Shown: piece by piece, positions 3,519 to 36,358 of the stretch
How positions within the stretch are numbered: the stretch's first letter is position 1
Layout: the number at the start of each line of letters is the position of its first letter
Assembly: GCA_013286575.1 (NCBI GenBank)
Contig: JABDFL010000004.1
Span: forward strand, 1-55,473
Length of the DNA: 55,473 bases
Direction: 5' to 3'
Source of the DNA: Candidatus Omnitrophota bacterium
GTDB taxonomy: Bacteria > Omnitrophota > Gorgyraeia > Zapsychrales > Fredricksoniimonadaceae
Translations under genes and position numbers: made by a program
The notes under the pieces: generated by a model
Told to the model about the DNA's origin: nothing
Seen by the model: only the letters and a program-made list of their open reading frames with translations
Databases searched by the model: none

Positions 3519-3672
3519 AATTGACCCCGTAAGATTTATTGGATTTGTTGAACAGCGATAATATGGCACAATATTGATTATTTGTCAATATTTATTTGCA
3601 CATATTGCTAATTAGTTTGATTAAATGTCAATATTGGAGAGAAAAAAATTTGATCGTAGAATTTCAATAAGG

Positions 3673-12691: not shown

Positions 12692-14103
12692 GCTCTTCGA
12701 TTCAATTAGTCGTGATCGGCGCCGGTCCCGGTGGTTATGCTGCGGCTTTTTTAGCGGCAGACTTAGGCATGGAAGTGGCCATCGTCGAAAAAGAAATCAA
12801 CCCCGGCGGCGTTTGCCTCTACCGCGGCTGCATCCCTTCCAAAGCGCTTTTGCATACAGCCAAAATCATCAGTGAAGCCAAACATGCCAAAGCCTTTGGC
12901 ATTGAATATAACGACCCTAAAATAGATATTAATAAACTGCGGGACTGGAAAAAATCGGTGGTCAGCAAATTGACCGGCGGTTTGGGCCAATTGGCCCGTG
13001 CGCGTAAAATTAAATATTTTCAGGGAGAAGCCGCTTTCGTCAACTCCAATACCCTGAAAATCAAAAAGACTGACGGTTCCACCGAAGAATTATCATTCCA
13101 GAAAGCTATTTTAGCGACGGGTTCACGCCCGTCAGTCATCCCTAATTTACCTAAATCTCCTGATATCTGGGATTCCACAGGAGCCCTGGAATTAGAGAAT
13201 ATTCCTGGAAATTTATTGGTGGTCGGCGGCGGTTATATCGGCATGGAATTAGGCACCGTCTATCATGAATTGGGCTCCAAGGTTTCGGTCGTTGAAATGA
13301 CCCCGGGACTTTTGCCTGGCGCTGACCGTGATTTGGCAGACATTCTTTACAAGCGTGTTAAAGGCTTGTTTGCCAAGATCATGCTCGAGACCAAGGTCGT
13401 TAAAATGGAGGCTTCCGCGAAAGGCGGCATCACCGTGACCTTTGCTGACAAAGAAGGAAAAGAATTTAAAGAAGATTACAATAAAGTCCTGGTTTCTATA
13501 GGCCGTCGTCCCAATTCAGAAAATCTTGGCCTGGAAAACACCAAGGTCAAGGTCACTCCCCGCGGCTTTGTTGAAGTCAACGATCAACGCCAAACCGCAG
13601 ACCCAAGTATTTATGCCATCGGTGATATCGCCGGTGACCCTATGCTGGCCCATAAAGCCTCACACGAAGGCCGAGTGGCCGTAGAGACAATTGCCGGGCA
13701 CAAGGTGGCTTGGGAGCCGCAGGCCATCCCAGCGGTGGTTTTTACCGACCCTGAAATCGCCTGGTGCGGAATGACTGAAATCGATGCTGCCAAGGCCGGA
13801 CGTGAAGTAACGGTTGTTAAATTCCCGTGGGCCGCCTCAGGCCGTGCCTTGACCCTTGACCGCACTGATGGATTGACCAAACTTCTCATTGATCCTAAAA
13901 CCGAACGTGTTCTGGGTGTGGGAATTGTCGGGGTTGGGGCCGGAGAAATGATCGCTGAAGGGGTGGTGGCCATTGAAATGGGCGCCGTTGCCAAGGATTT
14001 AGCACTTTCCATCCATCCTCACCCGACGCTGTCAGAAACCATCATGGAAGCTGCCGAAAGCTTCTTCGGCCAGAGCACGCATATCTACAAGCCTAAGAAG
14101 TAG
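12688..14103 (+). CDS. lpdA: dihydrolipoyl dehydrogenase E3
   Basis: 471 aa with the FAD motif VVIGAGPGGYAAAF, the redox disulfide GGVCLYRGCIPSK and a C-terminal HPHPTLSE. Its start forms an ATGA overlap with the aceF stop. Confidence 0.95.
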   Translation: MSSSIQLVVIGAGPGGYAAAFLAADLGMEVAIVEKEINPGGVCLYRGCIPSKALLHTAKIISEAKHAKAFGIEYNDPKIDINKLRDWKKSVVSKLTGGLGQLARARKIKYFQGEAAFVNSNTLKIKKTDGSTEELSFQKAILATGSRPSVIPNLPKSPDIWDSTGALELENIPGNLLVVGGGYIGMELGTVYHELGSKVSVVEMTPGLLPGADRDLADILYKRVKGLFAKIMLETKVVKMEASAKGGITVTFADKEGKEFKEDYNKVLVSIGRRPNSENLGLENTKVKVTPRGFVEVNDQRQTADPSIYAIGDIAGDPMLAHKASHEGRVAVETIAGHKVAWEPQAIPAVVFTDPEIAWCGMTEIDAAKAGREVTVVKFPWAASGRALTLDRTDGLTKLLIDPKTERVLGVGIVGVGAGEMIAEGVVAIEMGAVAKDLALSIHPHPTLSETIMEAAESFFGQSTHIYKPKK

Positions 14104-17100
14104 CCCCCAAGAATTTCCTCAAATTTAACATCGGCTCAATACTGATAATCACCGGGACAAAACCGGGGGCGTTTTGCAATTCCTGGAGCTGTGCCGGATC
14201 AATATGAAATTTAATCCCCTGGCCGTTGTTTTGGACAGTTAAAGCTTTGTCAGAAGTCAAATCAATCCCACCTTTATCCTCTACCTTCATCGCTACATCA
14301 GCCGGCTGCAGGTCTTTCTTTGAAAAAATATACATCTGTTTTAGACGCCCGGCTCTTAAATAATTCAAAGGAATGGAAGTATTTATTGTAGTAAACCCTC
14401 TTTCTTCAAATATTCTTGCAGACAGATGGACTTCTGAAAATCCTGTGATTAGCAACTTACCACCATCATTTAGAAAATCATGCACTTCTGATACTAAAGC
14501 CAATGCCTGCTCTCTGGAAGCCACTTCAAAATTAAAGCCCCCACCAATTGAGGTAATAATATCCATTTTAGGAACGTTATCTTCGCTGGAAAAAAGGCTT
14601 TCTCCCTCAAGTAAATTCTTTGGAATAATCTGAATGTACATCGAAAGCCTCTCTTTGAAATCCTTTCGAACAGCATCTAAAACATTTAAATTTTGTTCAT
14701 TGCCTTCTGCCAGCCAATAGTGCATACGGGGCATATCCCTGCCTTGAAAATGTCGCACTAAAGCCTGATGAAATTTCTCTATAAAAGACCCATCACCGGC
14801 AAAAATATCCATCATATTTATGTCTTTTTGTCCTTTTGCTGCCATTTCATCTACCAACGAAACAACTGCACTTATCGCCATTGGATGAATGAACTCATTA
14901 TAAGCTTGCTTGGGTCGGGTATTTCGGACGGACCAGTCATACCAATAAGACAAAGGCATTGAGCGGGGCGCAGATAAGAAAGTTTCATCTTCAAATTCAT
15001 TGCCTTTCAGGAGTTTAAGGATATCGTAAAGCCAAACTTCTTCTTCAAGATTAAGAGGAACATACCTCTGTAAATCGGTGTCATACCATACATCCCGTCT
15101 ATCCCCCCTAAATGCAGTACCTTCCATGGGATTGGATATTATCTCCTTTGATATCCTTACATCCTGTAATACCCGTATATCTGCCTGATCAAGCCCTACA
15201 GGCAGGGCATTAATTCTGATTCTCATATCAGGATATTGTGAACGCACCTTTAATAGCGGAGAAGGAAGTTCTCTATTGAGAGGATTCCGGGCAATACTTT
15301 CATTGATTTGCCTGACTTTTCCAGCAATGGCCTTAACACGGGCCCTATCATCCATTTCCGGATGAGGGTTGAACACTCCATTTACAAATGCCCCTTTAAT
15401 AATTGGACTCATCGCCGCATCCCGGATTGGCTTCTTTTGTACTGCTCCTGAATCAATGACGACCATTTCTCCATTAGGCAACATGCCTAAATTGCCACTG
15501 TCATAATTTCTATAACTAACATCAATTAATACATAGCCCTGTGCTTCTAGTTTAGCATTGAGACGCCGAACGCCCGCATTTGTAATACCAGCCGTAATCA
15601 CTTTAGGTAGTCGTTCAACTGTCCAACCGCCAATTTTCTTAGAAACGGTAGGCTGAAGGACTCCATCAATATCAGGCCTGGGAGTTTGGTCTTTATTAAA
15701 ACGAATGACATCACCTTCCGGTGTTTCAAGCACTAATGCTTGAGTGCCTGCGCCTAATCCTTTAGTTCCCAAAGGAATTTCAGCTAAAAGATCATTCGCA
15801 TACCGGCTCTTTAAAATATCTTGTGCCCGGGGCTCAGGAACTTCCATCGCCTCACCATTTCTTACTACGTTACTTTTTCTTTTTAAACCTGATAATAGAT
15901 TTCTTCCATACTCAATTCTTTGGCCTTGTAAATCTAATTGGATGGCCTGATCGGGAGCGTCTGCTTCCAATCTTCTTATTAAAGATGTGATCCTCTGTCG
16001 TTTTGACAAATCGTCTTTTAAATCTTCGTCTTGTGCTAATGCCTTCTTCAGGAATTGAATTAATGTCACACGCATATTCTTTTGTGTTTTCACAAGCGCC
16101 TGCCGTTTAGAACCAGGATCTTTAAAATGCGCAAACTCCCTTTCAAACTCATTAAGGTCCAAATGTTCACAAAAATTGATTAAACGGGCCAGCTTTTCAA
16201 TATCAAATCGGCCATTGAAATGCCTTAAGAATGTGCCTACGGGGTACTGGTAAAAATAATCCGTGCTGAAAGTTTTATCAAAAGATGTCAGCAAATCAAA
16301 TGCGACAAGATGTGCCTTGCCATTCACGGAGAATATTTCGTAATTATGATGCTTACGAAAATCAATGTCCGTATGTTGCATTAAATAGGAAAAAGCCACT
16401 AACTCTTCAAGTCCATAATGTTCTGAGGAAATGGTTTCGGCATATTCTTCAATAGGCTGTATGACCAGAAAAAGTAAACCCGAAGGACTTTTGAAACCAA
16501 ATTTTTTCTCCAGCGGTACAGCTTCAACGCCTTTTATTAACCTTGTATCCGGAACATAGACACCAATTTTGCGGGCAATACTATAAGATAAATTTTCATT
16601 AGCTGTATTATCTGTATTGTCATACGCTTTAACGTAATACTCTTCTCCTTCCGGGCCATTAAGCCTATACACTCTCCTGTCTTTGCTAATAAGTCTGGAT
16701 TTCTCAAAGAAATCTGAACTTAATTTATCAATATCAAATTTAGGCGCGGCATTCGTCGCCGCATCATTTCTCGCCCGTATTTTCCTTAAGATCACTCCTT
16801 CATGTAACATTGTCAGAAGATCGTATCTATGATCTTCAAAACTCACAGGGCCCTTATTTAAAAAAACCCTTCCTGCGATTCCAGTATTGATCATTACCTT
16901 TATTGTTTCAATGTCTCTGTCATCGGCATAGATAATGATCGACTTACCAGGATGCGATTTCCAATAGATAGCCAATGCTTTTTCCAATCTCTGCAAAGCC
17001 TTTGGCTGCAAATGCAGCATCGGCACTGAAAATGCTTTTGCACCTGCGTATTTTGCAAACACTCTCCTATTAACAGCATTGTTGGACTGACTCATCAGGT

Positions 17101-19273
17101 GCGTGCCGATTCCAAGATTATCCAAATCATCGGAAGGGAAAATCACATTCATCGCCGCATCACCTGCCCTCATCACCGCCACGCCGCCTGAGCTCATGGC
17201 ACGGTCCATACCGGCCATAGCAATTTGATTGTACCGCGCTAAATATTGATATTGGTAAACGTCAATCAGTAAATACTTCGCCCCTTGCCGCCTTGCTTGT
17301 TCTAAACAAATTTTTCCAAGAAAAATTTCATTCCCTATTAATTCATAATAAGACCTCATGTATTCATTGACTCGAACGGGCCAGGCTTGGGCTGCAAGAA
17401 AATCATCAAGCTCATCTTCACGATAATATTCTTTCGTATCAGATATTCTCTCCATGACTCTAAAAAAATAATATAACATCGTTTTCTCATCAGGATTTTC
17501 TTGAAAAAACCTTATTACCTCTTCTCTTAACCCTTCCATCCTGACCCTCAAATCCCTGATACTATCTTGAAAGTCAACGGATCTCTTAGAGCTCGCACTG
17601 ACTATATTTAAATTGACTTTGTCACGAACAAGGGCAAATATAGCAGGACCGTAAAGGGCCCTCATCAGCTTATCAGCAGCTTCCCGGGCATCAATACGGT
17701 TTGTGTAGGCTGCCGAAGCACCACTAAAGATCATTTCTTCTCTTTCTTTAAAGAGACGAATATCGTCCTTGATCTCTTTTTCCTCCATATTTACTGCGAT
17801 AATCAGTTTCCCGGTACTATTTTCTGCCCTCATGTTCTTTAAGAATTCCGGGTAGGAGGAATCGAATTTTAATGTATTAAGCCTATACATAAGTTCTTTG
17901 ACCTCCTCTACATCCGGTTTTTTATCGCTAAAAAACACCTTCTTGATTTTTTCGACCAGATAAGCGGGAACACCGGGCCAACGATATTCAGCAGTACCTT
18001 CGGCTGCTTTTACAGGAGTCGGCAGGAATGCCGTAGTGGCTATTGTAGCCGCTGCTAATCCTAAGGCTTCCCGCCTTGTCAACACAGTGTCCAATTGCAT
18101 TGTTAAACCGAGTAGGCCTGTTTTATTGTTCGGAGGAGTCGCGGTTGCTGTGATGGCCGGATCCAATAAGGTCACGCCGCCGGAGAAATATTGCCTCGGG
18201 ACGAGCTGCTGTGTTATGGGGTCTTGTTCTTCTTTAATGTAGTTATAAGCGCCTTTTTTGAAGGCTTGGAGGTAGCGTTGGTAAATGACTTGGGGGGTAA
18301 AACTTTTATACCCTATTCCTACCACCTTACTTTTGTTTTCGTATACTTGTGCCAGGATGCTTGCTTTGATTTTCTTTTTGTACCAGGTGGCGAGGATGAG
18401 AGAATTATAGACCTGCCGTAGTTGGGCGAAATTTTTGTCCTGGTTGACTTCTTTGGTGAGTTCGGGGATGACTACTTCACGGACGACCTGGGAGCCGAGG
18501 GAACTGATACTGTTAAAAGATTGCTTCGCTGCGCTCGCAATGACACTGCTTTGCAATGACGAAGGAATTGGGCCTTTTGACACATTCTTGCTAAACGCTA
18601 AATAATCCTGCTCAAGCATGACTTTTAATTTGCTTTCGATGATATAGGCGGTGCCGGCTTGGGCATTTTCGTAGACTACGGCTTTTTCGGGGACTATCCA
18701 GACTTTGTTAAAAGTGTTGACCGGAATATTTGTTGTGCCGAATTTCTTTTGGGCTTCCTCATAAATCCGTTTCCAGAATTTCCTGCCTATTTCTCCTTCA
18801 GGATAAATTAAGCTGGCGGTGATTTGTTTGAGCATATAATCTTCAGCCAACAGGTCACGGCCCATTTCGGTTAGGCCGAAGCTTTGCGGAATGATGCGAT
18901 TTTTTTCGTAGGGGCTTAAGTTTACCCAGAGATCTTTTTCAGGGATGGTGAGGCTGGCGAGGAAGTATTTTATTAGTTTGGTGGATTCTTCTTTGATAAA
19001 AGATTGCTTCGTCGCTTCGGCTCCTCGCAATGACACCGAGGACAAATCACCTTTGTCTAAAATAAAATCGAAACGGAAAGGATTGTCGGGATGGATTTTG
19101 AGGCCTTTTAGTATGGGAGGATTGAATTCCGGGCTTAGGGGGACCATTATCCCTGGTTTTGGCAATAGGAATTCACCTGCCTGGGCCGTTGGTATAGGGC
19201 CAAACGTATTAGCTAAAAAAGCAATAATTAGCCCAAGAGCTATATTAGTTCTTAAATTTAGATACTTTCTCAT
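14093..19273 (-). CDS. giant exoprotein A (1726 aa): signal peptide, conserved N-module, unknown regions, two kinase-like domains, SAM methyltransferase, conserved C-module
   Basis: An uninterrupted 5.2-kb ORF starting at ATG 19271-19273. The signal peptide is IALGLIIAFLANTFGPIPTAQA/GEF. The N- and C-modules are shared with 24032..29623 and 32693..36358. The MTase motif I is MDIFAGDGSF. Confidence 0.9.
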   Translation of the reverse strand: MRKYLNLRTNIALGLIIAFLANTFGPIPTAQAGEFLLPKPGIMVPLSPEFNPPILKGLKIHPDNPFRFDFILDKGDLSSVSLRGAEATKQSFIKEESTKLIKYFLASLTIPEKDLWVNLSPYEKNRIIPQSFGLTEMGRDLLAEDYMLKQITASLIYPEGEIGRKFWKRIYEEAQKKFGTTNIPVNTFNKVWIVPEKAVVYENAQAGTAYIIESKLKVMLEQDYLAFSKNVSKGPIPSSLQSSVIASAAKQSFNSISSLGSQVVREVVIPELTKEVNQDKNFAQLRQVYNSLILATWYKKKIKASILAQVYENKSKVVGIGYKSFTPQVIYQRYLQAFKKGAYNYIKEEQDPITQQLVPRQYFSGGVTLLDPAITATATPPNNKTGLLGLTMQLDTVLTRREALGLAAATIATTAFLPTPVKAAEGTAEYRWPGVPAYLVEKIKKVFFSDKKPDVEEVKELMYRLNTLKFDSSYPEFLKNMRAENSTGKLIIAVNMEEKEIKDDIRLFKEREEMIFSGASAAYTNRIDAREAADKLMRALYGPAIFALVRDKVNLNIVSASSKRSVDFQDSIRDLRVRMEGLREEVIRFFQENPDEKTMLYYFFRVMERISDTKEYYREDELDDFLAAQAWPVRVNEYMRSYYELIGNEIFLGKICLEQARRQGAKYLLIDVYQYQYLARYNQIAMAGMDRAMSSGGVAVMRAGDAAMNVIFPSDDLDNLGIGTHLMSQSNNAVNRRVFAKYAGAKAFSVPMLHLQPKALQRLEKALAIYWKSHPGKSIIIYADDRDIETIKVMINTGIAGRVFLNKGPVSFEDHRYDLLTMLHEGVILRKIRARNDAATNAAPKFDIDKLSSDFFEKSRLISKDRRVYRLNGPEGEEYYVKAYDNTDNTANENLSYSIARKIGVYVPDTRLIKGVEAVPLEKKFGFKSPSGLLFLVIQPIEEYAETISSEHYGLEELVAFSYLMQHTDIDFRKHHNYEIFSVNGKAHLVAFDLLTSFDKTFSTDYFYQYPVGTFLRHFNGRFDIEKLARLINFCEHLDLNEFEREFAHFKDPGSKRQALVKTQKNMRVTLIQFLKKALAQDEDLKDDLSKRQRITSLIRRLEADAPDQAIQLDLQGQRIEYGRNLLSGLKRKSNVVRNGEAMEVPEPRAQDILKSRYANDLLAEIPLGTKGLGAGTQALVLETPEGDVIRFNKDQTPRPDIDGVLQPTVSKKIGGWTVERLPKVITAGITNAGVRRLNAKLEAQGYVLIDVSYRNYDSGNLGMLPNGEMVVIDSGAVQKKPIRDAAMSPIIKGAFVNGVFNPHPEMDDRARVKAIAGKVRQINESIARNPLNRELPSPLLKVRSQYPDMRIRINALPVGLDQADIRVLQDVRISKEIISNPMEGTAFRGDRRDVWYDTDLQRYVPLNLEEEVWLYDILKLLKGNEFEDETFLSAPRSMPLSYWYDWSVRNTRPKQAYNEFIHPMAISAVVSLVDEMAAKGQKDINMMDIFAGDGSFIEKFHQALVRHFQGRDMPRMHYWLAEGNEQNLNVLDAVRKDFKERLSMYIQIIPKNLLEGESLFSSEDNVPKMDIITSIGGGFNFEVASREQALALVSEVHDFLNDGGKLLITGFSEVHLSARIFEERGFTTINTSIPLNYLRAGRLKQMYIFSKKDLQPADVAMKVEDKGGIDLTSDKALTVQNNGQGIKFHIDPAQLQELQNAPGFVPVIISIEPMLNLRKFLGATS
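18516..18565. repeat. family-1 mini-repeat copy inside giant gene A (codons ~238-253)
   Basis: aaaagattgcttcgctgcgctcgcaatgacactgctttgcaatgacgaagg has the same AGATTGC...CTCGCAATGACAC termini as the other copies. Confidence 0.65.
18999..19036. repeat. family-1 mini-repeat copy inside giant gene A (codons ~79-92)
   Basis: aaagattgcttcgtcgcttcggctcctcgcaatgacac is nearly identical to the aceF right arm. Confidence 0.7.
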
Positions 19274-19289
19274 ATAGACAAAGTATGCC

Positions 19290-20777: not shown

Positions 20778-20784
20778 TGCGGAA

Positions 20785-22025: not shown

Positions 22026-23011
22026 TAGATTCCTTTAAAATCAAGCTTGTCCCCCACCTTCCAGTTATGAGAGGTGGTGTAACCGCTGTTAATTTCCAAA
22101 ACATAACGGGCTTTTCTGTCAGGCGTGTAAACCGGGCAAGGGTCACTCGTGCAAGCAGGGATATCATGGCCTATAAAGACAATATGGCCGTCGAGGCTTA
22201 TCCACAACATGTCCAGATTAAATTGCATATTTTTCATCCAGAATGACTGAAAGTCATCAAAAGTAAAAATAAAAAGCATGCCCTTGTCCCGGCCTAAACC
22301 TGTGCGGTACATCAACCCGCGGTCCATGTCCGCCTGTTTAGAAACCACCTCGACGCTCACGCAATCGTCCAGATGACAGACCTGCGGAGGCACTGCACCG
22401 GCATGGCAAACGCCGGAAAGCAAAAATATAAAAAAGAGCGCACTCACTCCAAATTTTTTCAGCATTGCTGCCAGCTTGGCCAAAGGCAGGCCTACCACGT
22501 TAAAATAACAACCCTCGATGCGCGGGATAAAAAGGGCGCCTTTGCCCTCGATATCAAAACCGCCTGCTTTATCCAGGGGAGAAACAAGCTGATGATAACG
22601 GTCGATCGCCTGATCAGTCAGTTTGGTCATAAACACCTTTGTTTTTTCCCAACCCATCTCGCGGCGTCCGGTCCCTGCATCGATGACAGCCACGCCTGAA
22701 TACACCCAATGCGGCCGGGCCATCAATTCTTTAAGATTCTTTTTCGCTTCCTGCATATTGCGAGGTTTAAGAATAAGCCTGCCCTTAGAAGAAAGCACCA
22801 CCGTATCTGAGCCGATGATTATCCCCTCGCCCAGGCGCTGGGCCACTTCCCTGGCTTTTCTCAAAGCATTGACCTGGACAAGATGGGCACAGCCATGGGT
22901 CAAACGCGTGATTTCCCGGGCCCGGCTTGGGGTGACTGTAAAAGGCAGCCCCAATATTTTCATAAGCTTTCGACGCTGAGGGCTAGCCGAAGCCAGGACG
23001 ATCTTTTTCAT
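22025..23011 (-). CDS. maf: Maf-like nucleoside-triphosphate pyrophosphatase fused in frame to a DUF192-type domain
   Basis: Residues 1-180 are Maf-like (IVLASASPQRRKLM...GGFDIEGKG...GLP). Residues 183-204 look like a signal peptide (MLKKFGVSALFFIFLLSGVCHA). The rest is DUF192-like (GMLFIF...MKNMQFNLDMLWI...YVLEINSG). Confidence 0.75.
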   Translation of the reverse strand: MKKIVLASASPQRRKLMKILGLPFTVTPSRAREITRLTHGCAHLVQVNALRKAREVAQRLGEGIIIGSDTVVLSSKGRLILKPRNMQEAKKNLKELMARPHWVYSGVAVIDAGTGRREMGWEKTKVFMTKLTDQAIDRYHQLVSPLDKAGGFDIEGKGALFIPRIEGCYFNVVGLPLAKLAAMLKKFGVSALFFIFLLSGVCHAGAVPPQVCHLDDCVSVEVVSKQADMDRGLMYRTGLGRDKGMLFIFTFDDFQSFWMKNMQFNLDMLWISLDGHIVFIGHDIPACTSDPCPVYTPDRKARYVLEINSGYTTSHNWKVGDKLDFKGI

Positions 23012-23565
23012 TGAAGGAATTCAGCAATAGTAAAAATGGATTTCAAAGGCACATGATACTTGGCCAAGGCCTCCTGGGCGCCTTCACCCCGGTCGATGAT
23101 ACAGATGGCTTGTTTAATTTTGATATTCATCTTCTGCAGCACTTCAATCGATTCCACAAAAGCCTTGCCGGTGGTTGCCACATCATCAATGATCACCACA
23201 GACCCGGCTTCCGGAAGTAACGGGCCTTCGACCTGCTGCTGCTTGCCGTGCGCTTTGGGCTGCTTGCGGATGATAAAGGTGTTGATAGGACGGCCTGCCT
23301 GGTGGCTTAAAGAGGCAATGGCCCCCACCATAGGGTCAGCGCCCAGGGTAGGGCCGCCGATGGCATCGGGCATATCTTTGCTGATCATATCCAGCATAAT
23401 GCGCGCGGTCAAATACGCTCCCGGGGCAGAAAGGGTCACGAGACGGGCATCGAGGTAAAAGTTACTCTCTTTTCCCGATGATAAAATAAATTTACCCTTG
23501 GAGAAAGCCTGTGTCTTCAGGAGGCGGAATAATTCTTTTCTGTCATTGTCTATAGGTGTGTGCAT
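23008..23565 (-). CDS. pyrE: orotate phosphoribosyltransferase
   Basis: 185 aa with GKFILSSGKESNFYLD and the PRPP loop VVIIDDVATTGKA. Confidence 0.9.
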   Translation of the reverse strand: MHTPIDNDRKELFRLLKTQAFSKGKFILSSGKESNFYLDARLVTLSAPGAYLTARIMLDMISKDMPDAIGGPTLGADPMVGAIASLSHQAGRPINTFIIRKQPKAHGKQQQVEGPLLPEAGSVVIIDDVATTGKAFVESIEVLQKMNIKIKQAICIIDRGEGAQEALAKYHVPLKSIFTIAEFLQ

Positions 23566-27000: not shown

Positions 27001-29623
27001 ATATACTATCCAAAATAGTTTTGTTTATATCGTTTAAAACCGCTGTCTCAAAATGTGCTTTCTTTGTGGAAGAATAGATAAATACTGCATGACGAACCCA
27101 TTTATTTACCAACGGTGGTCTCATTAGCCTTTGAACAATTCCTATCTCTCTAAAAAGTGTTTCACTTGTTTCATTAATCCTCACTTCCAGTTCCGTATCT
27201 TTTTTAGGCACAGATTCCGATAACGTCACAATGATCACTTCCTTGGCTCCAGCATCCAATAATTTTCTCCGGATTTCCGTGGAAGTAAAACCCGTCCCCC
27301 AATGATCGTCCACAAGCAGTATCGTTTTCCCTCTTATTTGATCTAAATCTTTAATTTCATAAGCATCAATCACATTTAAAGCCTTGTTTAACAGACCTTT
27401 AACTAACTTCTGTTCTCTTCTCCGATCTATTTTTACAACAGATGAATTACCAACTGAAATATGGGATTTTTCTGATAAAACCATTAACAAAGGATCTAAT
27501 TGATTTTGCTGACCGTTTAATCGCGGGACACCAATAATTAAGTCTGGTTTAAGATTTTGAACACTCAAAGCTCGAATCACTTTTTCTGAAAATTTATCAG
27601 CCAATTGAAGCATTGCTTCAACATTCTTTTTAGTTTCAAAATATTGTATTGAAAAATTATCATAAATAAAGTTTGGATGGCTATGTGGAAACAAAACATT
27701 GAAGGTAATTACTGGGTGTTTGTAAGAAGTCAGTGACAAATTACTTTCAGCGGTGTTCAAATTCGCTATGCCATATTTCAACAATTCCGTAACCCAATAA
27801 TATCCAACGTCAGCTGAAACACTTTTCCCGGTAAACATAAAAGAAGGGCTTTCTTCATAACTGCTTTTGGCAGCCGACGAAAGATAATTAAAAACACCTG
27901 TTTTGACCAAGTCATCCTGTGTCTCAAAATATATTCTCTGGATCAACGTTCGGATAACTTCTAATACTTCTTCATGTTTTTGCGTTTCTACTTCATATTG
28001 TTTTAAAAGACTTGCTAAGGTATCAAGCTTTGATTCCACCGGCTCCGTTCCTGGCATCACACTATTTAAAATGGCTTGATACCTTTGCGCTGTCTCACTT
28101 AAACCTCTTATACGTAACCTAAAAACTTCAAAAGCAACTTTTAAAGCCAAATATTCTCTATTAAAAAGACCCTGCCCACGATTTTGAGCGATCTTGTAAG
28201 CTTCTTTGGAAATATAATCAATACGTCCCTTACTAACAATCCAATAAAATGAATCACTTGCCGGATTTAAAACAAACTCAGCTGGGACAACCCCTCTCCC
28301 TCTATCTGTAGCGATATAATCTGTGAAAAAAATGGGCTGATAATAAATTTTATCTCCCGATTTTTTAATTCTTATTAAACCAAACTCTTTACTAATAACT
28401 AACTGTCCATTTTGTAATTGACTATATAAAACAATACCATCTCTATACTCCAATGATGCACTCATCGCTGGGTCAATTCTGACATTAACTATTTCACTAT
28501 CATTACCGGAAGGCATGTTCCATTGATGCAAAATTATCATGGCCGAATCAATTTTCAAGATTGTCATATTAAGCAATACCCCACCCGAAAAATATTTCCT
28601 TGGAATAGTCTCTTGAGTCACAGGGTCTTGTTCTTCTTTAATATAGTTATAAACACCTTTTTTAAACGCCTGTAAATACCGTTGATAAATTTTTTGCGTT
28701 TCTTGCGGGTCATCAATATTCACTCCAGCCACCTTCTTCTTATCGGCATACACCTGCTCTAGAATACAGTCCTTAATTTTATTTTTGTACCAAGTGGCTA
28801 AGATGAGACTGTTATAAATTTGGCGTAATTGAGAGAAATTTTTGTTCTCGTTAACTTCTTTTGTTAATTCGGGGATGACGATTTCGCGGACGATTTGGGA
28901 GCCTAAAGCACTCGTGTTCTGGATTCCCGCTTTCGCAGGAATGACATTGTGAGAGAGTGCTAGGTAATCTTGCTCAAGCATTACCTTCAATTTACTTTCA
29001 ACAACATACGCCGTACCAGCCTTAGCATTCTCATATACCACAGCTTTTTCTGGCACAATCCAAACTTTATTAAATGTGTTGACGGGGATATTCGTTGTAC
29101 CAAATCTTTTCGTAACTTCTTCGTAAATACGTTTCCAAAATTTCTTACCAATCTCCCCTTCAGGATAGATTAGGCTGGCCGTTACCTGCTTGAGCATATA
29201 ATCTTCGGCCAGTAAATCCCTGCCCATCTCAGTCTGGCCAAATGATTCTGGGACTATGCGGTTTTTTTCGTAAGGACTTAGATTGACCCAGAGGTCTTTT
29301 TCAGGAATGGTTAAAGAGGCAAGGAAATACTTAATCAACCTACTAGATTCATCTTTGAGAGCGTCATTAGATAATTGGCTGTCACCTTTATCTAAGATAA
29401 AATCAAAACGAAATGGATTGTCAGGATGGACTTTGATTCCTTTAAGGACTGGCGGATTAAATACAGGACTCAAATACACCATTACCCCAGGCGCAGGCAG
29501 ACGAAATTCATCTGCCTTGACTTGAGGTATAGGACCAATTGTATTAGCAAAAAATACCAATAAAATGATAAAAGATTGCCCCGGCCTAAAAAACAGGCCT
29601 CGCAATGACATATAACTCCGCAT
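24032..29623 (-). CDS. giant exoprotein B (1863 aa): signal peptide, conserved N-module, ComF-like PRTase, double-HKD phospholipase D, ART-like, HAD/FCP1-like phosphatase, conserved C-module
   Basis: An uninterrupted 5.6-kb ORF with ATG at 29621-29623 and a second ATG at 29609-29611. Motifs are listed in the findings. The N- and C-modules are shared with the other two giant genes. Confidence 0.9.
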   Translation of the reverse strand: MRSYMSLRGLFFRPGQSFIILLVFFANTIGPIPQVKADEFRLPAPGVMVYLSPVFNPPVLKGIKVHPDNPFRFDFILDKGDSQLSNDALKDESSRLIKYFLASLTIPEKDLWVNLSPYEKNRIVPESFGQTEMGRDLLAEDYMLKQVTASLIYPEGEIGKKFWKRIYEEVTKRFGTTNIPVNTFNKVWIVPEKAVVYENAKAGTAYVVESKLKVMLEQDYLALSHNVIPAKAGIQNTSALGSQIVREIVIPELTKEVNENKNFSQLRQIYNSLILATWYKNKIKDCILEQVYADKKKVAGVNIDDPQETQKIYQRYLQAFKKGVYNYIKEEQDPVTQETIPRKYFSGGVLLNMTILKIDSAMIILHQWNMPSGNDSEIVNVRIDPAMSASLEYRDGIVLYSQLQNGQLVISKEFGLIRIKKSGDKIYYQPIFFTDYIATDRGRGVVPAEFVLNPASDSFYWIVSKGRIDYISKEAYKIAQNRGQGLFNREYLALKVAFEVFRLRIRGLSETAQRYQAILNSVMPGTEPVESKLDTLASLLKQYEVETQKHEEVLEVIRTLIQRIYFETQDDLVKTGVFNYLSSAAKSSYEESPSFMFTGKSVSADVGYYWVTELLKYGIANLNTAESNLSLTSYKHPVITFNVLFPHSHPNFIYDNFSIQYFETKKNVEAMLQLADKFSEKVIRALSVQNLKPDLIIGVPRLNGQQNQLDPLLMVLSEKSHISVGNSSVVKIDRRREQKLVKGLLNKALNVIDAYEIKDLDQIRGKTILLVDDHWGTGFTSTEIRRKLLDAGAKEVIIVTLSESVPKKDTELEVRINETSETLFREIGIVQRLMRPPLVNKWVRHAVFIYSSTKKAHFETAVLNDINKTILDSIFANNVVEEWALLLREGLITQSDLGRRVQRLILIMAESMLGAVIKGQAKTEENKELIKELISQKPLNQILHEKGQDISDGLMFFEANALLDHFSGNIYDSTDGRILGREEARANMNSRSRFYFFDETSAISVQNLKPDEAMVSNDKSPAQEEYRLRWIEHQGVHILPIGETFDGGRILRQLVTDARRSILIDMYSFHDNSVWDLLKQKAIEGIEVKVIIGKNVKRLTKKQSELIQSIQKEEINNLQIIFYRPERNRQFVMAAPSPDDHKKLIIIDGQYVYIGCDNLSFFRGRTAGLIVHSIHGLKEFEDIFWENWYWAHGQRYAFRATKNPWGQILRERSIEDNTRFAYIQEILKAKKRIYISQWHLNDDLIVQVLKMKLRNDPKIDIRVLLNGVEKKFQLFPLYIPYVRSLPAYDKLQSSSVPVRWSNPKGLFDHRKLLIADNTVITGSSDLTPRAYYGNQELGIRLENSQLAEYFSKIFIEDWGVAENRDGNIQEKITSYFINWFSRKIQRANTFIDLYLTDFSETTVRWYFFLIGKASRFIKKLFGFDLKEFHEATEVLYRGVDGEELERINDRGELMPSIFGAKNNIYTHMGVFLTTSYRKAFNYATIKTMRNSGSYVLTLGIQRQQRLFHLNGVGEKEYEKWVQLNFGGAHEDLLPVYLMMHHFDGYYFERYPSVSTVVLIHGRDLELLKVDSINEEAGTDSSTQGKKNVIDQNGFIDGSVYEEQFIKNERTMSRERPTVVFDMDHTILDKRRTFLGSVSIIRPGIIDELNKLKTMGYRLVLWTRSPKKAVRKYLLSNSEMYGLFELIITGDNGLSAWNPGVSNSVRKEYYQSLFKKYSEKYNEYKPIGLFKYRLLVDDKSDIFGGASSYVIKPFLDNKVDTEPIDQLANRIDAMVKFPRIEVTSHDAWKELTDGAMTAKGGIDLTPANMNLQTQNSGSEIRFHLDPAMLQQLQNAPGFVPVIINIQPLKSLSQFLGLTQSTTLK
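28921..28947. repeat. family-2 hairpin mini-repeat inside giant gene B (codons 227-235)
   Basis: ggattcccgctttcgcaggaatgacat has an 8-bp stem ATTCCCGC/GCAGGAAT (one mismatch) with a 4-nt loop. Confidence 0.7.
29571..29610. repeat. family-1-like variant at the 5' end of giant gene B
   Basis: aaagattgcc-ccggcctaaaaaacaggcc-tcgcaatgaca has conserved termini. Its interior is replaced by a GGCCT/AGGCC hairpin. Confidence 0.45.
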
Positions 29624-29731
29624 AAGTGAAGTATAAACTATCTATATACTTTCTGCCACTTTTAGACCTTTTGAACCTTAAAAACTGACTAGAAGGAAGG
29701 CTGGTTTGTTTGGTTGTAGTTTTATAATTAT

Positions 29732-30442
29732 GTGATGTACAATATAAATATGGTAACATACGTCATGCTTCAAGCCTTTTTACAGGGAGCTTTTGAACTT
29801 ATTTTCCCTGACAATTGCCTGCTCTGCCGGCAATTCCTTAATAGCCGCCACCAGCGACAGCTATGCCCTCATTGCCTGGGCTCCCTGGCCTTTAATCCAA
29901 ACCCCTTTAGCCGGCAATCAACATCCGGCTCATTTGCTTTTGACCAGGCATGGTCGGTTTGTCTTTATAATGAACCAGCCCAAAAGCTGCTCCATGCTTT
30001 TAAATACAATTCCAAAACATCCCTCAGTAAAACCTTTGTCCCTTTAATGATTGATTTCATCGACCGCCATCATGTTCCCGTGCAGCTGTTTGACTTGATC
30101 GCTCCCATCCCCCTGCATCCGGTGAGACTGCGGGAACGGGGGTACAATCAATCTGCTCTTTTGAGTCTTGCCTTAAGCCGGCACTACGGAATTTCACATT
30201 CAGAGGACCTGTTGATACGCCAGAAAATGACATCTAGCCAGACGGAATTAGGGGCAAAACAACGCTGGACAAATATGGAAGGGGCTTTTAGAATAAAAAA
30301 TCCGTCGGAAGTTGAAGGTAAAAGTGTCGTGCTTGTTGATGACCTTTTTACCACAGGCGCTACCGTGCACAGCGCCGCGGAAACCTTAAAATCAGCCGGT
30401 GCTGCCAGGGTTGGAGCGTTGACTTTCAGTATAACTATTTAA
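29732..30442 (+). CDS. comF: ComF family protein (zinc-ribbon plus phosphoribosyltransferase domain)
   Basis: Cys pairs CLLC...CPHC, PIPLHPVRLRERGYNQS, and the PRT loop VVLVDDLFTTGATV. The true start may be an internal Met (MLQAF...). Confidence 0.75.
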   Translation: MMYNINMVTYVMLQAFLQGAFELIFPDNCLLCRQFLNSRHQRQLCPHCLGSLAFNPNPFSRQSTSGSFAFDQAWSVCLYNEPAQKLLHAFKYNSKTSLSKTFVPLMIDFIDRHHVPVQLFDLIAPIPLHPVRLRERGYNQSALLSLALSRHYGISHSEDLLIRQKMTSSQTELGAKQRWTNMEGAFRIKNPSEVEGKSVVLVDDLFTTGATVHSAAETLKSAGAARVGALTFSITI

Positions 30443-30443
30443 T

Positions 30444-31532: not shown

Positions 31533-31542
31533 GCATGAGATT

Positions 31543-32655: not shown

Positions 32656-32692
32656 ACGCGGCTGGGGCCGGAAGCCTGTTACAGGAAAGTTA

Positions 32693-35600
32693 TTATTGGA
32701 TAAAATTCAGAAGATCGGCAATGGGGGTAATGCCGACAATAACTCCACGCAGGCCCCGTGAGTTTAAAACCATGTCTTCGAGGGCCTTATCGCTGACAAC
32801 ATCCGTCATGACGCGACCTTGACGGTCCATAGGAATGTTGCTGAGCTTGATACCGCCGGGAATATTCATGGCTGTATCAGAAACCCCCACTACTAAAGAT
32901 TGACCGGTCTTTTCAACTTTCTCGAGCTCTTGGACAAAATCAAACAGCTTGTCCATTGCTCTCTTAGTTAGCTTTATTTTGCCTCGTGTCTCAGGCTCCT
33001 GTTTAAGCGCATTAAGTTCTTCTCTCAAACTTTCTTTCAAGGGAGCTAATACGGGACTTTCACCATAAAGATAATTAAGATGAGATAATATGTCTGCACT
33101 CCCCGGACGATTGTGAAATTCCAAGGGGGTGATGTCACCGAATGCCTCAAGGAAAGGACTTAACCCATTGCCATTCTTATATACTTCTTCACCCTTATTA
33201 TCCTTCCAAACAAATGGCCCTCCAATTTCATTTAGCAAATACAATGCTTCATCACGGTCAATTGATAGTGGCGGGGTTTCCCCAGCTTTAATCTCTATTG
33301 GTGGGGGTTCATGTTCCCAATTTTCTTCTTTATCCCACTGTTCTTCAAAATGGGCACGTCTTTTTTCAAACTCTGCAATGGGATTGGCACTGCCTCCATT
33401 TAAAACGTCGAAAGCAATACCATATTCATTAATCATACGATAAATGGATACCTTTTGATGAGCGGCCCGAAAAGCCTCTTCCATCACTTGATATCGTTGT
33501 CCATTTCCAGGATTTCGATACATGTCAACGAATTCTTGCATATATGCGGCAAACTGCCGCCGACCTTCTTCATAAAATCGGGTCAGTGCCCATTGTTCCT
33601 TGTGTTGAAACGCCCATATAATTCTGCGAAATTCAGCACTATGTTCACCATTGCGTTTCGCATGTTCAAAATCAAAAGGATTTACTAACCATCCACTAAC
33701 TCCGGGCTTGATCCATTCCAATGGGCCTCCAGTCGCCGTAGCAATAGATGGGTGGCCATTTAAAGCCGCTCGTTCATCACTTGTACCAGATGCCTCCCGG
33801 GTCAGCCATGGCATGACCAACCAGCAATCAGTTGCTGATGTTGCAAATTTCATGAATTCTGTTCCTGTTGTTCTTTCAATGATTACAAATTTTCCTTTAA
33901 TATCAGGTTCCAGGGACAGCTGTGTTAATGCACTCACCCACTCAGGGGCTACACCATCAAGAGCTTCGCCAGCCAATAAAAGGTTTGCTCCGAGCCCCTT
34001 CCTTGGCCCTAATGGCGAGTCGTACACTTTATTTGGGTCTCCCACAATCCACCTGACCATAGGAATGAACAGGGCCTGAGATTTATATTCTACCATCCTT
34101 CGAACAGCGCCAAATAATGGCCGCTTGTGAATGTCAGCAAAACCCTCCAATCCCATACCTCTCAAATATTCATTTAGCTTGTATTTCTGGTTTGATCCTA
34201 TATCAAACAGATCCTTCCCGGTAATATTTGCTATCCCTTTTCTTGAAATGAGTCTGTTAAGATCATCAGAGCGCCACAGGGACGGCAAAGATCCATTTTG
34301 GATACCGGTTGTTTTGTCCGCAAAACCGGGCAAAACTGCTTCACGGGTAACATCAGCATGCTCCAACGAAACACCATTGATCATATGCGCATGATGGCCC
34401 ATAGCTCCAGCTGCATTCACTTGCCCGTTATATATAATATCGTCTCGCACAAGATCAGCACCTACCAAGTCTTTTAGCTTACCAACGTCCTTCCAAACAG
34501 GTAATGCCGCTGCTTCAGGTGTATGAGTTGTCATTAAAAACTTGGTTTCAGCAAAAATGCTCCGTTCACCTTTTTGTCTTTTTGCATCAATATCGTTCAA
34601 TACGGCCGTCATGACAAAAATTAATTGTGGCTCGCTTAATCGTAATATGCGAGGAGCAATGCCTAAAGCATAACAAAGTTCAACATAAGCCTTACCCATA
34701 AAACCATATTGTATGACTTGTTCGTCGCCTCCCGGGTACAACCTTTTAAACAGGTTGCGTTGTTTGATACCAAATACAGGAGTCCCATTAGCATCGACCC
34801 AGTAGATATAAGCACGTTCTTTTTTCCCTTTGAAATCCACATCAATGGAAAGCGCATGGTTATTTCCTTTTCCATCTTGAACAATAACAGGATGGACCCC
34901 TTCTTGGTGGTCCCAATCAACTTCGACACCATTCTTGTCATAGCTATAAAGCGGCATAGCGCCTGCGGCATTCCAATTTGGCAATAACTCGCTATAGGCT
35001 TGGTAGGTTTCTCCCGCCAGAAAACCAAGCCCTCCTTTGCCTAACGCTAATTGAGCCGTCCCCTTAATAGCAGATAAGAAAGCTTCAAGAGTTACATCAG
35101 TGACAACCCCGCTCCCTTCTGGATTTTGTAAATTGGCAATAACCCCCTCAGGGCCGTTTATAATCCGCAATCGTTTCCCGTGATAAAGCGCCTTGGGTGG
35201 CTCACTTGAAGTAACGCTTCGAATATCAACCCGCATATCATATATTTGTTCATCTCCTAAGACATCTAAACTCGTAACCATTGCGGGTTCACGTAGAATT
35301 TGTTGATCTACAAAACCGCCGGAGAAATATTTCCTGGGAACAGGCTGCTGGCCTGACCGGGTCATCTCTTCTTTAATATAGCTGAAGACACCCTTCTTAT
35401 AGGCAGACAGGTATTGATGGTAGATACGGTCTTTATTCTTTGGATCGCTGAGATCAATACCCGCGACTTTATTACGCCCGGAATAAACTTTATTGAGGAC
35501 CGATTTTTTAAAAACGTCCTGATACCATTGGGCCAGGATGAGGGCGTACAATATTTGCCTTAACGGCGCAAAATTCTTGCCTTCATTGACTTCATTCTCT

Positions 35601-36358
35601 ATGGCAGGGAGAACAACTTCACGTAAGACCTGCTTGGATAGATTCCTGACAGTATTATTTTTCTGCGCATTGATGTTCTCGCCCAATTTGTTTAGGGCCA
35701 AATAATCCTCTTCAAGCATGACCTTAAGATGCGCATTGACAATGTAAACCGTATTGCCCTTTTCAAATACCGACGCTTTCTCAGGAAGGATCCATACCTT
35801 ATTAAATACATTGACCGGGACCTGGGTAACGCCGAATTTCCGGTAAGCTTGCGTATACACTTTGTTCCAAAATGTTTTACCTAAATTGCTCTCCGGATAA
35901 ATAAGGGAAGCCGTGATTTGTTTGAGCATGTAGTCTTCTGCCAAAAGGTCACGGCCAAGTTCTGTTTTGATCAAGGTATCCGGGATAATGTGGTTTTTCT
36001 CGACCGGGGAAAGATTGACCCAAAGATCCTTTTCAGGTGTCGCCAAAGAAGCCAGGAAATAATTAACCATGCGCTGGGACACTTTCTTAAAATTGTCAGC
36101 GCTTAATCTTTCATCGCCGGGATCTACGATAAAATCAAACATGAAGGGATTTTCAGGATGGACTTTCAGGCCCTTGATCAAAACAGGCTTAAAAGCCGGA
36201 CTTAAACTTACTCTGGTTCCCGGTTTCGGTAAGAAAAATGACAAGCCGGATATATCAACAGATTGGGCATGGGCAGGCGGCAGGAATATTGATGTTCCCA
36301 AAAAACTGATTGAGACCCAAAGGGCCAAAAAGCGTCGGAAAATGATGATCGGTCTCAC
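32693..36358 (-). CDS. giant exoprotein C (1221 aa): signal peptide, conserved N-module, alpha-glucan phosphorylase-like domain, helical region, divergent C-module
   Basis: An uninterrupted 3.7-kb ORF with the signal peptide FLALWVSISFLGTSIFLPPAHA/QS. GT35-like strings include GGLGFLAGE, THTPEAA, INGVSLEH, GIQNGS and REASGTSDERAALNG. Confidence 0.9.
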   Translation of the reverse strand: MRPIIIFRRFLALWVSISFLGTSIFLPPAHAQSVDISGLSFFLPKPGTRVSLSPAFKPVLIKGLKVHPENPFMFDFIVDPGDERLSADNFKKVSQRMVNYFLASLATPEKDLWVNLSPVEKNHIIPDTLIKTELGRDLLAEDYMLKQITASLIYPESNLGKTFWNKVYTQAYRKFGVTQVPVNVFNKVWILPEKASVFEKGNTVYIVNAHLKVMLEEDYLALNKLGENINAQKNNTVRNLSKQVLREVVLPAIENEVNEGKNFAPLRQILYALILAQWYQDVFKKSVLNKVYSGRNKVAGIDLSDPKNKDRIYHQYLSAYKKGVFSYIKEEMTRSGQQPVPRKYFSGGFVDQQILREPAMVTSLDVLGDEQIYDMRVDIRSVTSSEPPKALYHGKRLRIINGPEGVIANLQNPEGSGVVTDVTLEAFLSAIKGTAQLALGKGGLGFLAGETYQAYSELLPNWNAAGAMPLYSYDKNGVEVDWDHQEGVHPVIVQDGKGNNHALSIDVDFKGKKERAYIYWVDANGTPVFGIKQRNLFKRLYPGGDEQVIQYGFMGKAYVELCYALGIAPRILRLSEPQLIFVMTAVLNDIDAKRQKGERSIFAETKFLMTTHTPEAAALPVWKDVGKLKDLVGADLVRDDIIYNGQVNAAGAMGHHAHMINGVSLEHADVTREAVLPGFADKTTGIQNGSLPSLWRSDDLNRLISRKGIANITGKDLFDIGSNQKYKLNEYLRGMGLEGFADIHKRPLFGAVRRMVEYKSQALFIPMVRWIVGDPNKVYDSPLGPRKGLGANLLLAGEALDGVAPEWVSALTQLSLEPDIKGKFVIIERTTGTEFMKFATSATDCWLVMPWLTREASGTSDERAALNGHPSIATATGGPLEWIKPGVSGWLVNPFDFEHAKRNGEHSAEFRRIIWAFQHKEQWALTRFYEEGRRQFAAYMQEFVDMYRNPGNGQRYQVMEEAFRAAHQKVSIYRMINEYGIAFDVLNGGSANPIAEFEKRRAHFEEQWDKEENWEHEPPPIEIKAGETPPLSIDRDEALYLLNEIGGPFVWKDNKGEEVYKNGNGLSPFLEAFGDITPLEFHNRPGSADILSHLNYLYGESPVLAPLKESLREELNALKQEPETRGKIKLTKRAMDKLFDFVQELEKVEKTGQSLVVGVSDTAMNIPGGIKLSNIPMDRQGRVMTDVVSDKALEDMVLNSRGLRGVIVGITPIADLLNFIQ

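Follow-up and report, generated by a model that had tools for sequence, protein, structure and literature searches.

A stretch of 55,473 nucleotides from contig JABDFL010000004.1 of a Candidatus Omnitrophota bacterium (assembly GCA_013286575.1, positions 1 to 55,473; the whole of it is called the window below) was analyzed. Three of its genes, A, B and C, encode proteins with a common frame: a conserved signal peptide and an N-terminal module of about 330 amino acids (aa), the N-module, at one end and a C-terminal module of about 57 aa, the C-module, at the other. Between the end modules sit one to several unrelated, shuffled modules, here called cargo, which are delimited by a short motif, [DN]xAM; the frame also occurs empty. 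A, B and C belong to a very large, previously undescribed Omnitrophota-specific family, and literature searches found no account of the N-module, the C-module or the [DN]xAM motif.

Genes A, B and C and their constant ends

The three open reading frames (ORFs) were found with exactly the positions, strand and lengths given in a preliminary description of this DNA. Its claim of a colinear N-terminal module of about 330 aa was confirmed by BLASTP, in which only the ends of A, B and C align. The matching N-terminal stretch comprises 350–390 residues, with 69% identity over 375 aa between A and B (E 2e-158), 49% between A and C (E 2e-103), and 50% between B and C (E 9e-111). For the module of about 330 aa itself, the identities range from 49% to 74%. 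All the strings quoted for this module were recovered in a three-way alignment, with one correction: A has PRQYFSGG, not PRKYFSGG. The shared C-terminal module was evident by BLASTP in A and B, the last 97 aa of which are 47% identical (E 5e-20); in C it is real but divergent. The tail of C was invisible to BLASTP and was recognized via the family profile: it matches a 30-sequence family alignment at about 30% and retains the skeleton GGI.L ... G...I..I.P...L..F[IL]. Homologs L057 and L061 have divergent tails resembling that of C. The middles of the three proteins, described as unrelated and enzyme-like, are indeed unrelated (the best match between any two cargo regions had an E-value of 0.88); in domain searches, those of B and C were recognizable, and that of A gave weak similarities only.

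The N-modules are 56–68% identical at the nucleotide level, and identical codons were found at only 37–46% of their identical residues. The proportion of synonymous differences (pS) was 0.80–0.87, i.e., saturated, against a nonsynonymous proportion (pN) of 0.18–0.33, which bears out the third-position divergence noted earlier. Since synonymous sites are saturated and pN is low, the three genes are paralogs of ancient origin on which purifying selection acts strongly, as had been supposed. An artefact of assembly or annotation, with one locus duplicated by misassembly or with chimeric ORFs, had nothing in its favor and was excluded by the same nucleotide divergence and saturation, by the identical recurrence of protein C on independent contigs with the same neighbors, and by a layout common to thousands of homologs. 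The three copies did not collapse into a single locus.

Regarding the end modules, no Pfam-A or NCBIfam match at E ≤ 0.01 was found for full-length proteins or motif-delimited segments, and a profile of 105 N-modules found no solved structure among PDB sequences; its match to huntingtin was spurious, falling on cargo columns. An AlphaFold2 model of the B N-module (mean predicted local distance difference test, pLDDT, 80.9; predicted template-modelling score, pTM, 0.73) consists of three beta-hairpins and long helices, and the best-conserved stretch of the module, ..PEKDLWVNLSPYEKNR.., forms a low-confidence loop in it. A Foldseek search of this model against PDB and BFVD gave nothing at E ≤ 0.001; the top matches (NheA, HU/IHF arms, colicin Ia, and Cry6Aa), with template-modelling (TM) scores under 0.2, were disregarded as evidence. 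Modelled alone, the C-module gave a low-confidence structure (pLDDT 64, pTM 0.26) with no beta-sandwich, which suggests that it may fold only against a partner. Neither Cys nor His is conserved in the constant modules; the invariant residues of the N-module include S79 and K108 (model numbering). With the N- and C-modules, the family contributes two sizeable domains that lack a Pfam or NCBIfam model and any detectable fold relative. This agrees with the earlier statement that they lie outside named families, and no match to a two-partner secretion (TPS) domain, an autotransporter or a type IX secretion system (T9SS) C-terminal domain (CTD) was found. The identity matrices of the two modules are correlated (Mantel r 0.62, reached by 0 of 2,000 permutations), a co-variation driven by the divergent subfamily that includes C, with r = 0.23 once that subfamily is removed.

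In each of the three proteins, a single hydrophobic segment lies at the N-terminus and comes with a positively charged n-region, GPxP in the c-region, and an AxA site, so the signal peptides noted earlier were upheld. No hydrophobic or transmembrane segment other than the N-terminal one was found in the family proteins. A simple signal-peptide test was passed by 59 of 66 family members, and the signal-peptide sequence itself is conserved across the family (..FLANTFGPxPxAQA/, the slash marking the predicted cleavage point). Sec export and cleavage are predicted because positive charges precede the hydrophobic core and an AxA site is present. Alternatively, the segment could be an uncleaved inner-membrane anchor, with the bulk of the protein in the cytoplasm of the producer. 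Such tethering is proposed for the transmembrane-only class of Omnitrophota long proteins (bioRxiv 10.64898/2026.06.07.730766). Cargo of cytoplasmic type would suit it, as would the occurrence of the same domain pool in long proteins read there as cytoplasm-facing. We regard a tether as very unlikely: the charges before the core and the GPxP..AxA c-region after it predict an N-in orientation with the remainder translocated and the peptide cleaved, and further hydrophobic segments are missing.

Table 1. Features of the window, with residue ranges and positions.
Feature	Positions	Strand	Remarks
Gene A, family member, 1726 aa	14093..19273	-	signal peptide, N-module, three cargo segments, C-module
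A signal peptide, aa 1-32 (..FGPIPTAQA/GEF)	19178..19273	-	sole hydrophobic segment; charged n-region; AxA
A N-module, aa 33-366	18176..19177	-	ends PRQYFSGG; two in-frame palindromic mini-elements (19002-19034, 18519-18544)
A variant junction motif DPAI, aa 371-374	18152..18163	-	five residues past N-module
A cargo segment 1, aa 375-689	17207..18151	-	no recognizable family, noise matches only
A double junction DRAM (17195-17206) and DAAM (17150-17161)	17150..17206	-	15 aa apart
A cargo segment 2, aa 709-1284	15422..17149	-	weak HipA-like kinase similarity
A junction motif DAAM, aa 1285-1288	15410..15421	-	
A cargo segment 3, aa 1289-1658	14300..15409	-	DIFAGDGSF glycine-rich motif, read by eye
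A junction motif DVAM, aa 1659-1662	14288..14299	-	5 aa ahead of C-module
A C-module, aa 1668-1723	14105..14272	-	GGIDLT..IKFHIDPAQL..APGFVPVIISIEP..FLG
Gene B, family member, 1863 aa	24032..29623	-	
B signal peptide, aa 1-37 (..IGPIPQVKA/DEF)	29513..29623	-	n-region holds mini-element 29574-29609
B N-module, aa 38-348	28580..29512	-	sequence used for AlphaFold2 model
B double junction DSAM (28538-28549) and DPAM (28463-28474)	28463..28549	-	linker pLDDT <50 in model
B cargo segment 1, aa 388-1010	26594..28462	-	ComF-like phosphoribosyltransferase domain, aa 670-802
B junction motif DEAM, aa 1011-1014	26582..26593	-	
B cargo segment 2, aa 1015-1791	24251..26581	-	two PLD/HKD (aa ~1049-1358), unassigned stretch, HAD phosphatase (aa ~1618-1740)
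B junction motif DGAM, aa 1792-1795	24239..24250	-	3 aa ahead of C-module
B C-module, aa 1799-1855	24059..24229	-	contains internal DPAM
Gene C, 1221 aa, GTG start	32693..36358	-	divergent subfamily, both end modules diverging jointly
C signal peptide, aa 1-31 (..FLPPAHA/QSV)	36266..36358	-	
C N-module, aa 32-348	35315..36265	-	
C junction motif variant EPAM, aa 357-360	35279..35290	-	
C cargo, aa 361-1160	32879..35278	-	GT-B / alpha-glucan-phosphorylase-like enzyme
C junction motif DTAM, aa 1161-1164	32867..32878	-	3 aa ahead of C-module
C C-module, aa 1168-1221, divergent	32696..32857	-	GGIKLS..DKALEDM..GVIVGITPIADLLNFIQ
Stand-alone phosphoribosyltransferase-domain gene	23008..23565	-	flanks B
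Stand-alone phosphoribosyltransferase-domain gene	29732..30442	+	flanks B
Secretin gene	1743..3569	-	PF00263 and Secretin_N_2
ORF near secretin	565..1746	-	probably type IV pilus / type II secretion-like operon
ORF near secretin	71..568	-	probably same operon
tmRNA	6091..6530	-	Rfam 175 bits
Seven palindromic mini-elements	45307-45335, 42202-42225, 29574-29609, 28922-28945, 19002-19034, 18519-18544, 11362-11395	-	24-36 nt

The family, its empty frame and the junction motif

At least 1,317 relatives came out of a word-indexed search; those that carry a name are nearly all annotated as "hypothetical protein" of Candidatus Omnitrophica/Omnitrophota. An exhaustive search of 1.84 billion representative proteins with the N-module profile gave 8,388 matching representatives at E ≤ 0.001, of which 8,008 also passed E ≤ 1e-10 and 6,775 passed E ≤ 1e-30; with an edge this sharp, the family is isolated. 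Among the 150 profile matches listed, which were 435–2915 aa long, the N-module was N-terminal in all and formed a single stretch in 149. A scan of species-representative genomes yielded 498 confirmed genomic copies. The best 80 of these 498 loci came nearly all from Omnitrophota-type metagenome-assembled genomes (MAGs), one of which supplied 15 of the 80, and others 5–10 each. From the same 80 loci, 65 complete proteins of 403–3046 aa were rebuilt. The C-module ends about 55 of these 65 homologs (tails inspected by eye) and 107 of 136 representatives; a search for its homologs returned only fragments of at most 102 aa, which are uninformative on architecture.

The frame without cargo is represented by P0112, a complete 438-aa gene in which a signal peptide and an N-module are joined to a C-module by a 15-residue Ala/Pro linker, with no junction motif. 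Among the 168 proteins for which both end modules could be placed, it is the only one without cargo; it sits on contigs of 32–44 kb and is followed, in tandem, by a second family member. With the N-module ending in ..YFSGG and the C-module starting with GGI.., the two ends look as if cargo was inserted into a loop of a single ancestral protein.

More divergent subfamilies were also observed (L082:4093-7425, L027:2318-4636, L073:2236-7995, and L049:6222-9866), with heads of the form ..LP.PGTM[IV]NLSP.. and tails of the form ..G.Q.KV.KDG.GV.M.I.PAM..R.RREGL...PVI..M.P..; their members often lie in tandem with a canonical one, and their existence makes the superfamily wider than the 8,388 matches. 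Split members (L022:1006-7170 and L023:6793-10646) consist of two overlapping ORFs, the first with the head and truncated cargo and the second with the remainder and the tail. They could be frameshifts, pseudogenes or sequencing errors, and they account for many tail-only "proteins" of about 60–100 aa in public gene calls. Some family members lie on contigs labelled Phenylobacterium sp. (L021, NZ_JAUSCJ010000031.1) or "uncultured Planctomycetales" (binchicken MAGs); these are probably mis-binned or coarsely labelled Omnitrophota, not true occurrences outside the phylum.

The sequence D-x-A-M was spotted at each module boundary when the translations were read. Copies of [DEN]xAM numbered 4 in A, 5 in B and 2 in C, with 0.3–0.6 expected; in 83 family proteins, [DN]xAM was observed 256 times versus 16.5 expected, and "AM" was the top enriched dipeptide. 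Its density was 2.3 per 1000 aa in family ORFs against 0.25 in 811 neighboring ORFs (260 kaa, thousands of aa) and 0.24 in the other ORFs of the window, an approximately 10-fold enrichment; where a supposedly "non-family" ORF held several motifs, as a few did, it proved to be a divergent or split member of the family. In 74% of members, a motif follows the N-module within 45 aa (median 8.5 aa), and in 58% one precedes the C-module within 35 aa. Tolerated variation is [DNS]-x-[AS]-[MQL]; P, T, S, G and A abound in the flanks, which have low pLDDT. Junctions often carry paired motifs 10–30 aa apart, and the long gaps between motifs, 200–600 aa, are domain-sized. One candidate was set aside: an 81-aa repeat of homolog L003 containing "SPEKAM" is a helical repeat caught by an over-lax pattern and not a junction motif.

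Few homologous cargo segments are shared between paralogs, and those found run from motif to motif. For example, one module lies between the motifs at 1726 and 1945 in L003 and between those at 45 and 260 in L047, and the repeats of L006/L007 likewise span motif to motif. Of the ends of homologous segments, 40% have a motif at most 10 aa away, versus 6% of random positions. The motif marks the units of exchange among paralogs.

One explanation of the motif is a scar of gene capture, in which its Met would be the start codon of a captured gene placed on a standard linker end, or the internal ATGs would serve as alternative starts, the proteins being uncleaved fusions. The invariant Met at module starts agrees with such an origin, as does shared-module homology that begins just past one motif and stops at the next; the foreign third-position composition of the cargo, described below, is consistent with imported genes. 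However, D (−3) and A (−1) are conserved despite varied codons, with no consistent Shine–Dalgarno-like sequence upstream of the motif ATG, which led us to reject internal translation starts there and indicates that selection acts on the peptide. Moreover, a start-codon relic does not explain doubled motifs 10–30 aa apart and would decay, yet paralogs saturated at synonymous sites retain the motif. We consider this origin quite improbable and propose instead that [DN]xAM is a cleavage or recognition site because a strict tetrapeptide in free linkers at domain junctions resembles the processing sites of polyproteins and MARTX toxins. Cleavage itself is put forward tentatively, at somewhat less than even chances. 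As a lead only, D-x-A/ is similar to LDLA/, at which C-terminal processing proteases of the Ser/Lys type cut, and invariant Ser and Lys residues occur in the N-module.

Cargo and genomic setting

Annotated cargo of the window comprises phosphoribosyltransferase (PRTase), PLD and HAD domains in B and a glucan-phosphorylase-like enzyme in C, while A is essentially unannotated in Pfam, NCBIfam and PDB. The phosphoribosyl pyrophosphate (PRPP)-loop motif ILLVDDHWGTGFT is present in segment 1 of B, and the catalytic motifs of its segment 2 are intact: HKD (DHKKLIIID, DHRKLLIAD) and HAD DxDxT (DMDHT). The cargo of C matched TIGR02094 at E 8e-17, which is below the cut-off of that model, and alpha-glucan phosphorylases of PDB at E 1e-6. 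Segment 2 of A had a below-threshold match to PF20613 (E 0.004; 16.8 bits against a cut-off of 27) and no PDB sequence match. Segment 3 of A, with a weak PDB match to a methyltransferase (E 0.45) and no Pfam match, is tentatively regarded as S-adenosylmethionine (SAM)-methyltransferase-like. In 42 homologs, the cargo included HATPase_c, SAM-methyltransferases (PF08241), DnaJ, Glu/Leu and Ala dehydrogenases, starch synthase, MutS_V, PPDK_N, GDSL lipase, GNAT, GGDEF, NUDIX, HEAT and WD40. Cargo with recognizable domains consists of enzymes needing cytoplasmic cofactors; such domains cover a minority of cargo residues. A different kind of cargo was observed in homolog L003:11024-18868, aa 231–1121 of which are eleven tandem 81-aa helical repeats (ISSPEKAMEYYDQHK...) with no Pfam match.

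The G+C content at third codon positions (GC3) of the cargo was 0.36 in A, 0.31 in B and 0.36 in C, versus a mean of 0.56 for the other genes of the window; the GC3 values of the N-modules were 0.49, 0.39 and 0.50, respectively. Lying 20–25 points under the housekeeping genes, the cargo is compositionally foreign to the genome.

The window is an ordinary diderm chromosome, encoding pyruvate dehydrogenase (PDH) E1/E2/E3, LptF/G, alanine racemase, Maf, MetRS, CysRS, IspDF, RadA and a Clp ATPase, with two tRNAs and a tmRNA. A, B and C are dispersed amid these housekeeping genes with no common neighbor or small downstream ORF: downstream lie a convergent E3 gene for A, a PRTase gene after a 466-nt gap for B, and a convergent LptG gene for C. 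B is flanked on both sides by stand-alone PRTase-domain genes; recent capture of its PRTase module from the adjoining ComF-like gene was rejected, the two being only 28% identical over 94 aa (E 8e-6). The sole secretion-related gene in the window is the secretin gene, about 10 kb from A; two upstream-overlapping ORFs near it are probably part of a type IV pilus / type II secretion system-like operon.

Two further features were observed. The tag of the tmRNA, as called by ARAGORN, is unusually long, 24 residues (AAQNIVDAHMAAMPVAAPALVPAV). The seven palindromic mini-elements share the form GTCATT[GC]C ... G[GC]AATC, all in minus orientation, with 0 expected in shuffles. Six of the seven appear in frame within coding sequence without breaking it. 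Their sites include the n-region of the B signal peptide, a low-confidence loop of the B N-module model (28922-28945, encoding IPAKAGI), two loops of the A N-module, read as SLRGAEATKQS and VIASAAKQS, the PDH E2 gene, and the N-terminus of MetRS. The reverse reading, DSRFRGND, is inserted in the C-modules of homologs.

Proposed function and comparison with known systems

Our overall reading is that the family comprises Sec-exported modular effector carriers. We put its chances at about even, and the architectural description deserves far higher confidence. The proteins would pass the inner membrane via Sec, and their signal peptide would be removed at AxA. Both the signal peptide and the N-module are very strongly conserved, which points to their engaging a fixed machinery that is not encoded nearby. 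The N/C frame might then be a handle for onward export, surface attachment or translocation, its two ends acting jointly or binding one common partner. The [DN]xAM copies in disordered linkers may be processing sites that free the modules, as in a polyprotein. The cargo would work in the cytoplasm of a host or prey because its PRPP-, nucleotide-, NAD- and Hsp70-dependent domains lack substrates or partners in the periplasm or outside. Action in the cytoplasm of another cell fits the predatory or parasitic lifestyle proposed for Omnitrophota (PMC10066038).

Several points weigh against effector carriers. Export, cleavage and delivery are steps that we infer, and the signal peptides were scored by a heuristic, not a trained predictor. 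The description of cargo as cytoplasm-type fits the annotated minority only since most cargo residues have no recognizable domain. No protease domain, secretion partner or immunity gene was linked to the family genes; over 80 loci, no conserved neighbor was found except a heterogeneous TPR cluster, which we took as noise. With no conserved Cys or His, the N-module, if it is the protease, could only be an unconventional one, and its Foldseek matches to pore-forming toxins (NheA, colicin Ia, and Cry6Aa) were insignificant (E ≥ 0.08, TM ≤ 0.14). The existence of a cargo-less member means that the frame may have a function of its own, e.g., a structural one.

This last point leads to an envelope or surface scaffold, in which the N- and C-modules would form a periplasmic, outer-membrane or coat unit, the enzymes being displayed permanently, the motif serving as a hinge or linker, and nothing being delivered. 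An intact cargo-less gene indicates that the frame can stand alone; the isolated C-module has no confident fold, as expected of a piece completing another domain or oligomer; and the co-variation of both ends and the ..YFSGG/GGI.. boundary, with its look of cargo inserted in an ancestral loop, point the same way. A surface coat has been proposed for Velamenicoccus (PMC10066038). Nevertheless, DnaJ, GGDEF, histidine-kinase ATPase, MutS ATPase, PRTase and NAD-dependent dehydrogenase modules would have no cofactors or partners outside the cytoplasm, and a four-residue motif that is kept while the linker around it is otherwise unconstrained would be expected of a recognition site more than of a hinge. 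We consider a scaffold unlikely, while taking it seriously.

The effector-carrier reading can be extended to a protein-delivery platform spanning the phylum, in which secreted polyproteins would carry the split N/C frame as a new export or translocation signal, the N-module would possibly insert into membranes, and a [DN]xAM tetrapeptide code would release interchangeable enzymes into host or prey and perhaps also explain the cutting of Omnitrophota giant proteins. This extension is possible but doubtful; if it is true, the same code might explain how the giants are processed. Omnitrophota are widespread, uncultivated, ultra-small bacteria, and the family may be a main part of how they act on hosts. 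The signature of N-module, C-module and [DN]xAM allows the putative effector repertoire of any Omnitrophota genome to be catalogued, the motif offers explicit candidate processing sites, a gap in the literature on Omnitrophota giant proteins, and the cargo-less member and the two compact modules are candidates for export tags.

The preliminary description had likened the layout to MARTX and polymorphic toxins as an analogy, and an analogy it remains, the defining features of those families being absent. As in MARTX toxins, constant N- and C-terminal regions surround variable, unrelated effector enzymes, short sites lie in the linkers, and modules are shuffled among paralogs or strains; in MARTX, the linker sites are cut to free the effectors inside the target cytosol. 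In contrast to MARTX, a substrate of the type I secretion system (T1SS) with dedicated ABC/MFP genes, the family has a Sec signal peptide, and no T1SS genes adjoin A, B or C. Glycine-rich RTX-type repeats, which MARTX has at both ends, were not found in the three proteins (Pfam, NCBIfam, E ≤ 0.01), the N-module being a single-copy globular domain, nor was a match to Peptidase_C80, the inositol-hexakisphosphate-activated cysteine protease domain (Pfam, NCBIfam, cargo segments included). The end modules, which are globular or short, have no sequence relationship to those of MARTX, the junctions carry [DN]xAM and not Leu-X, and the family is multi-copy, with apparently dozens of copies in a genome (at least 15 in one MAG), whereas MARTX occurs as one copy per genome.

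Polymorphic toxins (CdiA, Rhs/YD, LXG, and MafB) likewise combine a conserved trafficking end with variable enzymatic domains, multiple copies and shuffling. However, their variable part is C-terminal, whereas that of the family is internal, with a constant 57-aa module as the C-terminus. No immunity gene was found downstream of A, B or C, nor any neighbor conserved over 80 loci, and no known trafficking or pre-toxin domain (TPS, LXG, PAAR, RHS, MuF, or WXG) was detected on the N-module by Pfam, NCBIfam and PDB sequence and fold searches. The recognizable cargo of the family is mostly metabolic or regulatory enzymes, not nucleases, deaminases or pore formers.

T9SS cargo resembles the family in having a Sec signal, functional domains and a short conserved C-terminal module across unrelated proteins of one phylum. 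T9SS is a system of Bacteroidota, and no T9SS CTD (TIGR04183 / PF18962) was matched in A, B or C; the C-module is shorter (57 aa), is not predicted to be an autonomous beta-sandwich, and is accompanied by an additional, obligatory N-module of about 330 aa. TpsA proteins share the Sec signal, a conserved N-terminal domain of about 250–330 aa as the presumed secretion handle, and a large variable passenger. Unlike them, with their beta-helical TPS domain bearing NPNL/NPNGI motifs, the family has no PF05860 match, an N-module modelled as helices and three beta-hairpins and not as a beta-helix, and no adjacent TpsB/Omp85 gene. Type Va autotransporters differ in their C-terminal barrel of at least 250 aa, compared with a C-module of 57 aa with no PF03797 match. 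Viral polyproteins similarly have a short conserved motif at domain junctions in disordered linkers; the family differs in being cellular, predicted to be Sec-exported, and multi-paralog.

The giant Omnitrophota proteins ("archaeovorins") belong to the same phylum and draw on a shared domain pool (PF08241 methyltransferase, HATPase_c, GNAT, HAD, starch synthase, PPDK_N, NUDIX, and GGDEF), according to the domain lists of bioRxiv 10.1101/2023.11.21.568195 and 10.64898/2026.06.07.730766. The term "giant", applied earlier to A, B and C, holds only in a relative sense: they have 1.2–1.9 kaa, against 20–147 kaa for the proteins called giant in the phylum and 10–147 kaa for the giant and very long proteins as a whole. 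The latter contain many transmembrane helices and lie beside secretion or pilus loci, in contrast to a family of 0.4–3 kaa with a single N-terminal hydrophobic segment, whose genes are dispersed amid housekeeping genes. For the giants, cleavage into smaller products is suspected and the cleavage points are stated to be unknown in bioRxiv 10.1101/2023.11.21.568195; term searches in this paper and in 10.64898/2026.06.07.730766 found no description of the N/C frame or the junction motif.

The closest functional analog of the family is MARTX; polymorphic toxins, T9SS cargo and TpsA are looser ones, and those defining features of each system that could be tested are lacking. With its two end modules and its junction motif all undescribed, the family may prove to be a new delivery system.

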